Virus record (IMG/VR): IMGVR_UViG_2711768037_000007
Origin: a virus
Taxonomy: Duplodnaviria; Heunggongvirae; Uroviricota; Caudoviricetes
Strand: one strand, 5' to 3'
DNA length: 4,896 nucleotides
How positions within the stretch are numbered: position 1 is the first letter of the stretch; every line of letters begins with the position of its first letter. Below are positions 1 through 3,000 of this stretch, in pieces. Made by a program: the position numbers.

Positions 1-3000
1 GCAATCCGGAAGCTCACAACAATAAAAAAGACCACCGGCACACACCGATGGTCCCTGACGCATGCTTACATCATCATGTCGCTGTCAGGTGTGGGGTCAC
101 CGCTATCTGAAGCACTCCCCTCACCCGCGATGCCTTCCGGCTCCGGAGCTGCCGGTGCGCCCAGCAGTTCATCCAGAATGGCATCCACTTCTGCATCAAG
201 ACGCGCTTCCAGGTTATGGCGAAGTTTCTGTTTCAGTGCGCTCCGGACTTCTTCAGAGCGCAGGACTTCCTTCACTGCTTCAGCAGTGACCAGGGATGTA
301 ATTTCTGACATGGGATTTTCTCGTCGAAAGATGTGATTAAGAAAGTTGCCGCTAAATGAGCGGCTCTTCGGGTTTGCTTCCGGCTGACTGACTGGCGCTG
401 ATTTTCTCAGCGGCCCTTTTGTCAATCTGTCTGCGCCAGAAGTCACGCATGGCCCGGTATCCGCCCGAAAGGAGATACAGCACACAGACCACCGTACAGA
501 AGTACAGCATTAACTGGTTCAGAAATGTCATGGTTTCTCACCGTGATAGTTGACATGATTTACTTATTTTTGTAGAAAATGTCGCAAACTTCGGTGTCAT
601 AATGGTCGTTTTACCAGCCGCCAGCATTCATGTAGTGAACACAGTTCATCCCTTTCCTTCATTGCTGGCGGCTTTTTTTTATCATGCCGCGGCATCCGCG
701 TTATTCACTTCCACCGTAATGCTGTCTATCAGTACCGGGTAAATCGCACCTTTGGTAATGTCTGTCACATGCAGTTTATCCGCCGCAAAGGCACTGACCG
801 GTGACTGCGTCAGCGTGAACGGTGTGCCATCCTGACCATCAAGAACCGGCGTCACCTGAAGGCTGTTATTCCCGGCAAAGCGGAAGGCCAGCGTATGCCA
901 TTCGTTATCAAATGCGCCAAAGCTTCCCAGCTTCAGGTTGTTTGTCGCCACTTTCGCATTGTGGTACATCACATTCAGGTCTTTTGCATCTGTCTGGATG
1001 TAGAACGCTGCCAGCAGATTATTCCCTGCATCCCCTGTCAGGGTGACACCCTGCGGCAGAGAGGAAACCGGCCAGTAAAGTGCAATGACATACTGATTTG
1101 CTACCAGTTCACCGGATGCCTTAAAGCGGCAGCTGATTAAACCGCCATTTTTCAGTAGTTCAGCGCCAGTACCGGCATCATGCTCCAGATACCATGCCCC
1201 CACTCCTGTCTCCTTACTCAGCTTCATCGCGGTACCACCTGTTGCACCTTCATCGGCAACAATTTCCGCTTTACCTCCTCCAGCACTCCAGCCCTGTTCG
1301 GTCAGCCTCCCTTCAGACTCACTGGCACGGTAAGACAGCAGTGTTGTTGTGCTTACCGCTTCATTTTCTGACGGTGATGGCGTCGGTGCGCCAGTTTCAG
1401 AAGATGGAGCATCGACTTTTACTGTGGTTCGTCCTGCATGAATCAGAATCGCCGTTGCCAGACGGTCGGAAATAATCCCCCGGCGTGCCCAGGTGCTGAA
1501 ATGGCTCGCCCTGTCCTGTGACGTCCAGGTGGCTGAGCTGTCACGCCATTTCGAACCGTAATACCCGATACCCGGAATGTCCGGGTCTTCTTCCGGTTTG
1601 TTCGTCGGCACATTCACCCCGTTCTCATCCGTCATGAACGGTACGAAATGGATATTCTTTTCCGTTTTGTTTTTATAGCTGCCGTACACCGTCTGGTACG
1701 TGGATTCGTTCTTCTGCTTCCAGAAATACGTCGAGTCCCCGCATATCCAGGGAACACCGCCAGCAGAGCCACCAACGCACTGACCTGCCATATCCGTCAG
1801 GTCTGCACGGAATTTATCAACCAGCGCACCAAACTGTGCTGCGTGATTTGCCGGCGTACCGCCAAAATCAAATTCCCCCTGCATCCACACCACGGCAAAC
1901 AGCACATTTTTCGGGTTCTTCTTCAGTGCTGCTTTTGTTCGACCGATAAGGTCCTTATACAGCGGCTTGTCCACACCCCAGCGCGCTGAATTCTCCGAGG
2001 CACCACTCGCGTCACTGTATGTGCCATCAGCTCCGGTGGTGAACGCTGAACCACCACGACAGCACGGAACCAGCAGAATGCCCGCATTCGCCGGTATAAA
2101 CGGCAGCAATTTTTTGGCGATATGCAGCCCCTGCCCCACGGTACCGTACTGCCCCTTTGACAGGTCCGCTTTCGGATGGTTAAGACGGCTCATGTCCTGC
2201 ACATCATGCAGACAATGGTCCGCCGGAATGATGTCGTTATATTTACATGCTGCACCGCCCGGTGTCACCGTACTGCGGCGCGCCAGCTGCTTAATACGCG
2301 GGTCCGGACGGTCATATGTCTCCGGCAGCGGAAGACCTTCACCATACGACATGCCGTTTGACTGCCCTGCCAGAACCACAACAAAGTAATACCCGGGGGC
2401 GCTGGTGGCGCTGATTACTGCACCTTCTCCACCTGTCGGCTTCACCACAACAGGTGTGCTCACATCACCTTCTGCGACAATCGCCTGAATAAGTGCTGCG
2501 CCATCATCCGTATACGAAGAAAACGGCCCACCATATGGTTGCCATCCTTCACGAATTTTTTGCGCAAGTGCATCAGCAAGGTCTGACGGCGATGCCGCCC
2601 TGACCACATCGTAATGTTTAAATGTCATGAATCCTCCCGGCCGGGATAATGTTGTTAGTCGGATAAGGAGCGGGCTGAAGTCCGGAAGTTACAGGACAAT
2701 GACAGGAGGAAGACTACAGCCCGCAATACGAAAAAGGCCACGCAGTTGCGCAGAGTGATTACTGTCGGGTATTATTCGCCAGCTGAAATATTACTTCACG
2801 TTTTATTGTTTATTCCTTGCCGCCCGCGTCTCCCAGCGCGGGCTTTTTTTTATCCATAAGAAAGCCCCTCCGGAGAGGGGCTGAAGCCGCATTTCTGTAT
2901 CACCATGTACATGGTGCCGGGTGCCTCCCGGTGAGTTCAGTCCGGTGTCCCTGAACCCGCGTATCTCGATCCAGGTTGTCGTCAGAGATGACACCTTATA

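Follow-up and report, generated by a model that had tools for sequence, protein, structure and literature searches.

Two small, membrane-tethered phage proteins are, in architecture, the closest described counterparts of the protein treated here. The first, releasin (gp25) of phage Mu, consists of 99 amino acids (aa), lies in the membrane with its N-terminus outside and its C-terminal part in the cytoplasm (N-out/C-in), and is needed for the signal-arrest-release (SAR) endolysin to be released (PMC9239132). The second, Lcc6 (SO_4795) of the Shewanella prophage LambdaSo, is a 65-aa protein with a transmembrane (TM) helix at residues 5–22 and a 43-aa cytoplasmic tail; lysis by pinholin and SAR endolysin strictly depends on it, its action lies at the pinholin level, and by itself it shows no toxicity (10.1101/2024.01.23.576932). 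Here, we characterize a 59-aa protein of comparable predicted architecture, a member of the family DUF1378, whose gene occupies positions 352–531 (minus strand) of a 4,896-nucleotide (nt) stretch of caudoviral DNA (IMG/VR record IMGVR_UViG_2711768037_000007). This stretch, hereafter the window, matches Shiga toxin (Stx) 2 prophages in several Escherichia coli strains from end to end, with 99.5% identity.

The best overall explanation of the locus, to which we assign a probability of roughly 0.45, is that positions 352–531 hold a genuine DUF1378 gene and that the encoded protein is a late, N-out/C-in accessory of lysis. The two parts of this explanation carry different weights: that the gene is real is close to certain; that its product acts as a lysis accessory is a tentative proposal, drawn from genomic context and from the comparison with known proteins.

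Lcc6 and the DUF1378 protein, compared by description, are alike in size, in architecture, and in belonging to lambda-like phages with a pinholin and a SAR endolysin. However, the lcc6 gene lies near xis and far from the lysis cassette, whereas DUF1378 lies beside it, and Lcc6 is essential for lysis, whereas DUF1378 cannot be, given a lysis cassette in prophage Qin without annotated DUF1378 (see below). No 65-aa member is listed among the clusters from our DUF1378 profile search. Mu gp25 (DUF2730, PF10805) is likewise small, and is encoded within a few genes of the SAR endolysin; DUF1378 lies three genes upstream of the SAR endolysin gene R in E. coli prophages. The type I topology of gp25 would be matched by the N-out/C-in topology predicted for DUF1378 from charge and hydropathy. 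Mu has no holin, whereas the prophages with DUF1378 have a pinholin. The likeness of DUF1378 to releasin and Lcc6 is one of architecture only.

The DUF1378 gene and its product

An earlier note on this DNA, made from the sequence alone, had proposed a minus-strand open reading frame (ORF) with a ribosome-binding site at this position. Indeed, the ORF is intact, begins with ATG, and encodes 59 aa (MTFLNQLMLYFCTVVCVLYLLSGGYRAMRDFWRRQIDKRAAEKISASQSAGSKPEEPLI; ORF listing), with a Shine-Dalgarno-like element 5 nt upstream (Table 1). A single start choice, also claimed in the note, is essentially right: an in-frame TGA stop lies at 538–540, 9 nt upstream of the ATG, and the sole alternative in-frame start, M8, would cut into the hydrophobic helix. 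Every DUF1378 allele carries a purine-rich element 5–9 nt before its ATG, with sequences that vary (GGAAAG, GGGAGGG, GGAGATG).

Size alone is no evidence for the 59-aa ORF, the window containing 56 ORFs of at least 30 aa. Two results are decisive in showing that it is more than a chance reading frame. Firstly, the protein matches the Pfam family PF07125 (DUF1378) from end to end, with residues 1–59 aligned to positions 1–59 of the 59-position profile (134 bits, where the curated cut-off is 25; E 2e-39). It also matches PHROG 494 (E 1e-40). Secondly, selection is specific to this frame. We compared the window with 212 related loci from IMG/VR and other sources (213 in all), which contain 57 DNA alleles and 43 protein alleles of DUF1378, and computed selection for each frame on codons 1–47 of the 57 DNA alleles. 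In the DUF1378 frame, the proportions of synonymous (pS) and nonsynonymous (pN) differences are 0.454 and 0.121, corresponding to a ratio of nonsynonymous to synonymous substitution rates (dN/dS) of 0.19. The equivalent values are pS 0.133, pN 0.202 and dN/dS 1.6 in the +1 frame, and pS 0.106, pN 0.214 and dN/dS 2.2 in the +2 frame. Variable sites number 29, 21 and 43 at codon positions 1, 2 and 3, respectively. These results show that purifying selection acts in the DUF1378 frame only. Conservation of the frame in related prophages, which the earlier note had named as one of the points on which its proposal would turn, was therefore observed. The family match, the in-frame purifying selection and the conserved synteny described below together bear out the proposal of a real gene for a single-pass membrane protein.

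The protein is predicted to consist of three parts: a TM helix, a basic juxtamembrane helix, and a variable tail (Table 1). The Kyte-Doolittle mean over 19 residues reaches its maximum, 1.98, at residues 3–21, and residues 26–43 carry charges of +7/−3 (counted from the sequence). An AlphaFold2 model, with a mean predicted local distance difference test score (pLDDT) of 75, contains one helix at residues 2–50 followed by a disordered end. Among the E. coli alleles, L9, Y10, F11, V15, L18–L20 and S22–G24 are invariant. L9, V15, L20 and G24 do not vary anywhere in the family, and F11, G23 and R29 hardly do. An uncharged N-terminal flank and a basic C-terminal flank are found family-wide, and the positive-inside rule predicts an N-out/C-in topology with a very short periplasmic N-terminus. 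The hydropathy, the charges and the family match thus agree with the single hydrophobic helix and basic cytoplasmic tail of the earlier note, the cytoplasmic side of the tail being predicted.

The gene at 352–531 is already known and routinely annotated, and its product is an ordinary member of a known family. The protein fits the general DUF1378 form—approximately 50–65 residues, in which a hydrophobic N-terminal helix closes with (S/A)GG(Y/W) and is followed by a basic helix—and other members share its length, TM core and AAEK motif, with no differences that would set it apart. RefSeq uses the name "DUF1378 family protein" for the gene in loci nearly identical to this one, and 1015 of the 5426 complete E. 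coli genomes carry it (median three copies, maximum seven; counted with a 206-nt query across the gene, window positions 340–545). Many phage records carry the gene as a hypothetical protein (e.g., ORF48 of P13374), and a paper on the Q–S region of Stx2a phages points out that, in some genomes, the interval from nanS-p to S has annotated DUF826 and DUF1378 proteins, with function unmentioned (PMC10462455). The word "unlisted" in the earlier note therefore applies to that reader's own ORF track, and not to public annotation, which lists the gene. NCBIfam holds no model for the 59-aa protein, and no Protein Data Bank entry or solved structure matches it. The family is small: when 1.84 billion representative proteins were searched with the profile, 49 clusters at 50% identity came up, most of them fragments. 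Of two scans of GTDB species representatives, the first confirmed nothing and the second only three Enterobacterales loci (Cedecea, Mixta and Lonsdalea).

The 139-aa reading frame and DUF826

In another frame, the DUF1378 gene overlaps the N-terminal portion of a 139-aa ORF (66–485), a portion that the earlier note had suspected of being spurious. The DUF826 profile (PF05696) covers only residues 59–133 of this ORF, that is, the 81-aa ORF at 66–311. In the stretch where DUF1378 and the 139-aa ORF overlap, dN/dS is 0.19 in the DUF1378 frame versus 1.57 in the other. Upstream of the DUF826 ATG, the frame stays open for as few as 25 and as many as 67 codons, depending on the allele (66 codons in many), and the DUF826 frame is offset from that of DUF1378 by +1 in most alleles and by +2 in four. 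Since the N-terminal extension has no DUF826 match, a dN/dS above 1, and a variable length and frame offset, it is not coding, and the suspicion was well founded. The true gene downstream of DUF1378 is that of the 81-aa DUF826 protein, which comes next, after a gap of 19–40 nt, in essentially all loci that are long enough.

The long form nonetheless has a history in the databases. In the record of phage 933W (AF125520; locus L002), positions 5308–5754 are annotated as L0106, a 148-aa, over-extended DUF826 ORF, and there is no DUF1378 coding sequence (CDS). Long forms of this kind also make up PHROG 8301, a profile with 139 positions. Both L0106 and PHROG 8301 represent the same DNA as the 139-aa ORF of the window, in which the first ~58 codons are non-coding and the DUF1378 frame is the real one. 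Between the first 40 positions of PHROG 8301 and the DUF1378 protein there is a weak match (E 7e-5), suggesting that frameshifted fusion sequences were included in the profile. Two DUF1378-DUF826 fusions are present in databases: one frameshifted (P0126), and one in-frame through read-through (P0131).

The long annotations, the database fusions and the 66 open codons upstream of the DUF826 ATG in many alleles would fit an explanation in which the 139-aa ORF is the true gene, or in which a programmed frameshift joins DUF1378 to DUF826 as one membrane-tethered protein. We find this hardly credible, given the dN/dS of the extension frame, the start of DUF826 homology at an internal methionine, and the variation in both the open stretch and the frame offset. 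Joining the two frames would further need a +1 shift, and no slippery site is evident on reading the sequence, with no systematic search made. A programmed frameshift or fusion was accordingly rejected.

Genomic context of DUF1378

In essentially every sufficiently long locus among the 213 from E. coli prophages, the gene order is NanS-p, DUF1378, DUF826, S21-type holin, SAR endolysin, (Ant) and Rz. This order holds with or without stx, in the late region of lambdoid prophages, and answers the synteny check that the earlier note had suggested. The S21-type holins of such prophages have been classed as pinholins (PMC10462455). A simple scan found no sigma-70-like promoter in the 150-nt spacer upstream of DUF1378, and the gene is probably transcribed as part of the late operon.

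The size and single hydrophobic helix of the DUF1378 protein would also suit a type I toxin-like small hydrophobic peptide under antisense-RNA control, and prophages do carry genes of this type (e.g., hokD in Qin). This explanation is very improbable: the protein matches no Pfam toxin family, Rfam gives no hit at 300–600, promoter-like sites are absent nearby on both strands (simple scan), up to seven gene copies are tolerated per genome, and the gene is placed in line with the late operon.

Among the distant DUF1378 relatives, which come from unrelated phage types, most are encoded within lysis cassettes or on their margins. In the "Stenotrophomonas" phage vB_SmeS_BUCT709 (OM816835; locus L213), the order is P21-type holin, SAR lysozyme, Rz/Rz1, DUF1378; in a Lonsdalea locus (L221), it is holin, lysozyme, Rz/Rz1, DUF1378. 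In both, the start of DUF1378 overlaps the stop of Rz (ATGA), implying co-translation with the lysis genes. The other arrangements of this kind are (i) muramidase, DUF7940, Rz, DUF1378 and a terminator (L215), (ii) Rz and DUF1378 (L216), (iii) a lipoprotein with a C-terminal TM helix (u-spanin-like), P21-type holin, SAR-like lysozyme, DUF1378 and an acidic 76-aa ORF (L217), (iv) lysozyme, DUF1378 and an acidic 75-aa ORF (L214), and (v) lysozyme, DUF1378 and a DUF2570 spanin (L222). DUF1378 is separated from the endolysin by zero to two genes in all of these loci. The proximity fails in one lineage (L219, L220 and L223–L225, from Cedecea, Mixta and others), where DUF1378 follows a tail-fibre assembly gene and a Dam methylase gene lies farther downstream.

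Two genes of the vB_SmeS_BUCT709 cassette are missing from its record: the P21-type pinholin gene upstream of the lysozyme gene (2721–2936; PF04971, E 4e-21), over which a 78-aa "hypothetical protein" is annotated on the opposite strand, and an Rz1-like lipoprotein ORF embedded within the Rz-like gene (3697–3891).

The acidic ORFs that directly follow DUF1378 in L217 (4184–4414, 76 aa) and L214 (567–794, 75 aa) are Ala/Glu-rich, and a 54-aa stretch aligns between the two with 48% identity. As homologues of DUF826 they were rejected (hhalign probabilities below 1%), and because of this lack of similarity, the notion of a conserved pair of DUF1378 and an acidic ORF is one of size, charge and position only. 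In these two loci, the acidic ORF may represent an analogous partner, or its presence may be coincidental.

A small membrane protein whose gene lies directly upstream of a lysis cassette might itself be a holin or antiholin, forming or directly blocking the membrane lesion, and several holin-like proteins do occur in some phages (e.g., LydA–D of P1; PMC9025707). For DUF1378 this is improbable. The one predicted TM helix of the protein leaves next to no periplasmic portion, PF07125 is its only hit in Pfam (with no match to the holin families), and the analogous gp25 and Lcc6 are not lethal alone. Moreover, a holin or holin-like gene is already present in every cassette where its position is visible: the E. 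coli loci, L213 and L217 have P21-type holins, L215 has DUF7940, and L221 has a 111-aa candidate.

Within the window, all genes lie on the minus strand, and the order of transcription is tRNAs, stx2A, stx2B, STnc100 small RNA, NanS-p, 59-aa ORF and 81-aa ORF (Table 1). The tRNA trio stands where 933W annotates ileZ-argN-argO. Beyond the window, holin S, endolysin R, (ant) and Rz come next in phages P13374 and 933W; a 71-aa, phage-21-type S is predicted to start ~12 nt past the left end of the window, a position inferred from the related locus L001.

Table 1. Positions of the genes, protein segments and other elements in the window, listed in the direction of transcription.
Feature	Position	Strand	Basis and remarks
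Three tRNA genes	4473–4724	minus	Upstream of stx2A; ARAGORN: CAT (called Met), TCG and TCT (both Arg)
stx2A	3422–4381	minus	
stx2B	3141–3410	minus	
STnc100-family small RNA	2852–3066	minus	Between stx2B and nanS-p; Rfam RF02076, full-length match, 161.7 bits vs gathering score 47
NanS-p-type sialate O-acetylesterase gene, 648 aa	682–2628	minus	ORF; PHROG 143; RefSeq: DUF6645 domain protein
Shine-Dalgarno-like GGTGAG	537–542	minus	5 nt upstream of the DUF1378 ATG; read from the sequence
DUF1378 family protein CDS, 59 aa plus TAG stop (352–354)	352–531	minus	ORF; PF07125; PHROG 494; dN/dS; RefSeq name
Predicted single TM helix, codons 3–25, core LYFC..VC..YL.SGGY	457–525	minus	Hydropathy; conservation; AlphaFold2 pLDDT 88–91
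Basic juxtamembrane helix, codons 26–50, conserved D..AAEKISASQS, predicted cytoplasmic	382–456	minus	Charge count; conservation; AlphaFold2 helix to residue 50
Variable Pro/Glu-rich tail, codons 51–59, predicted disordered	355–381	minus	Length and sequence differ among alleles; pLDDT <50
Spurious N-terminal extension of the 139-aa ORF, non-coding	312–485	minus	No DUF826 coverage; dN/dS 1.57 in the extension frame; length and frame offset not conserved
DUF826 protein CDS, 81 aa, net charge −11	66–311	minus	PF05696 positions 1–75/75, E 3e-40
Terminator-like G+C-rich hairpin with T-run	27–56	minus	Between DUF826 stop and S start; terminator scan

The hairpin at 27–56 has a stem of 13 bp, followed by UUUUUUAUUGUUG; the 70 nt that contain it (window positions 1–70) fold at −23.6 kcal/mol (z −2.35). 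The hairpin resembles an intrinsic terminator situated immediately before the lysis genes, and could keep Q-independent read-through out of S, or shape the translation of S. The 933W record has no terminator annotated at this position. In P13374, a 96-aa "hol" with a start corresponding to window positions 63–61 spans the hairpin, and is probably an over-extended annotation.

Two further hairpins, each with a run of eight T, lie on the plus strand in 2822–2851 and 615–680, oriented opposite to the late genes. The former is GCCCGCG..CGCGGGC-T8 at 2822–2843 (terminator scan); the latter, seen by eye only, is a long-loop stem, CCAGCCGCCAGCA...TGCTGGCGGCT-T8, just past the nanS-p stop. These two hairpins may stop antisense transcription or belong to small plus-strand transcripts. 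Window positions 555–700 are also the point at which similarity to most other Stx phages ends.

A possible lysis accessory or cargo gene

The mechanism that we propose for the DUF1378 protein runs as follows. The protein would be expressed late and insert into the inner membrane N-out, with its basic, helical C-terminal tail in the cytoplasm. There, it would act as a non-essential accessory of the lysis step, tuning the timing of lysis and, in Stx phages, the release of toxin. A holin modulator or lysis factor, the possibility raised in the earlier note, would fit the lysis-cassette neighbourhood of the distant relatives.

Several points weigh against a role in lysis. Firstly, literature searches covering, among others, locus tags, Stx phages and small membrane proteins found no experiment on DUF1378 and no function for it. 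Secondly, the parallel with releasin does not extend to homology: a relationship to Mu gp25 was rejected (hhalign probability 0.14%, no PF10805 hit), and the cytoplasmic part is anionic in the 99-aa gp25 but basic in the 59-aa DUF1378 protein. Thirdly, the gene cannot be essential to lysis cassettes of this type. The Qin prophage of K-12 has a cassette of the same layout (essQ, rrrQ, rzpQ; essQ is the gene to which the 933W annotators likened their own S) in which DUF1378 is not annotated, a statement about annotation only, the profile not having been run on six frames; and the S-R-Rz-Rz1 cassette of phage 21 lyses cells by itself. Because of these two cassettes, any role of DUF1378 in lysis is at most modulatory. 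Fourthly, the Cedecea, Mixta and L223–L225 lineage has no lysis gene within 3.5 kb of DUF1378. Fifthly, in Escherichia the tightest neighbour of DUF1378 is NanS-p, even in a P2-like backbone without an adjacent DUF826 or P21-type holin, so the position of DUF1378 could reflect a shared cargo module. Finally, the edges of lysis cassettes in lambdoid phages are known hot spots for cargo genes.

The P2-like case is seen in three prophages (L228–L230), with the order holin, SAR-like lysozyme, LysB, LysC, NanS-p-like, DUF1378 and tail gene R. The NanS-p-like gene (SASA and DUF6645 domains; its product 55% identical to that of the window) and DUF1378 together occupy 1309–3674, between lysC and tail gene R. 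The DUF1378 allele (P0121) belongs to a different 50%-identity cluster from the group of the window, and no DNA similarity was detected between the P2-like and window copies of the NanS-p/DUF1378 spacer. Judged by this divergence, the pairing of NanS-p and DUF1378 is old, and the two genes apparently pass together, as one unit, from one phage backbone to another that is unrelated.

Such movement would suit a moron-type cargo gene, carried along with nanS-p and uninvolved in lysis, its product being a small inner-membrane protein that helps the lysogen or the phage in some other way—for example, by blocking the entry of superinfecting phage DNA, or by modulating a host membrane protein—and its place beside the lysis genes being an insertion hot spot. 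Three observations favour this explanation: (i) NanS-p is directly upstream in both lambdoid and P2-like prophages, despite protein identities of only ~55–60% and a spacer without DNA similarity, (ii) the lineage in which DUF1378 stands after tail-fibre assembly genes, by a methylase gene, occupies a typical cargo position, and (iii) in L215, DUF1378 is set off from Rz by a 40-nt spacer and has a strong terminator of its own. On the other hand, the simple scan found no sigma-70-like promoter in the 150-nt spacer upstream of DUF1378, the overlap with the Rz stop in L213 and L221 would couple the translation of the gene to that of lysis genes, every one of the seven independent distant contexts that lack nanS-p is a lysis cassette, and known defence-system models give no match to the 59-aa protein. 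On this evidence, we consider the cargo explanation somewhat unlikely, and prefer the lysis-accessory reading; the probability that remains beyond these two belongs to minor or unknown alternatives.

A bolder form of the lysis-accessory reading is that DUF1378, perhaps with an acidic downstream partner, represents a third class of small cytoplasmic lysis factors tethered to the membrane, unrelated in sequence to the other two, Mu releasin and LambdaSo Lcc6. The possible acidic partners would be DUF826 in E. coli and the unrelated 75–76-aa ORFs in L214 and L217. A protein of this class would set the moment at which the pinholin fires or the SAR endolysin is released, and hence, in Stx prophages, the timing and amount of Stx release. 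We regard this extension as unlikely.

For the window itself, the gene call changes nothing, the current RefSeq annotation already containing the DUF1378 CDS. It does point to a clean-up of older Stx-phage records and the resources derived from them: L0106 of 933W, some other phage records and PHROG 8301 hold an over-extended ORF in the place of DUF1378 and DUF826. Beyond annotation, the almost constant presence of a tiny family in the lysis cassettes of unrelated backbones, together with the precedent of two unrelated small N-out/C-in lysis proteins, makes DUF1378 a specific candidate for a modulator of lysis timing. The release of Stx accompanies phage-induced lysis (PMC3430580), and DUF1378 lies between stx2 and the lysis genes; an effect on the timing of lysis would thus bear on toxin release. 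If the proposed role in lysis timing is true, DUF1378 would be relevant to the release of Shiga toxin.

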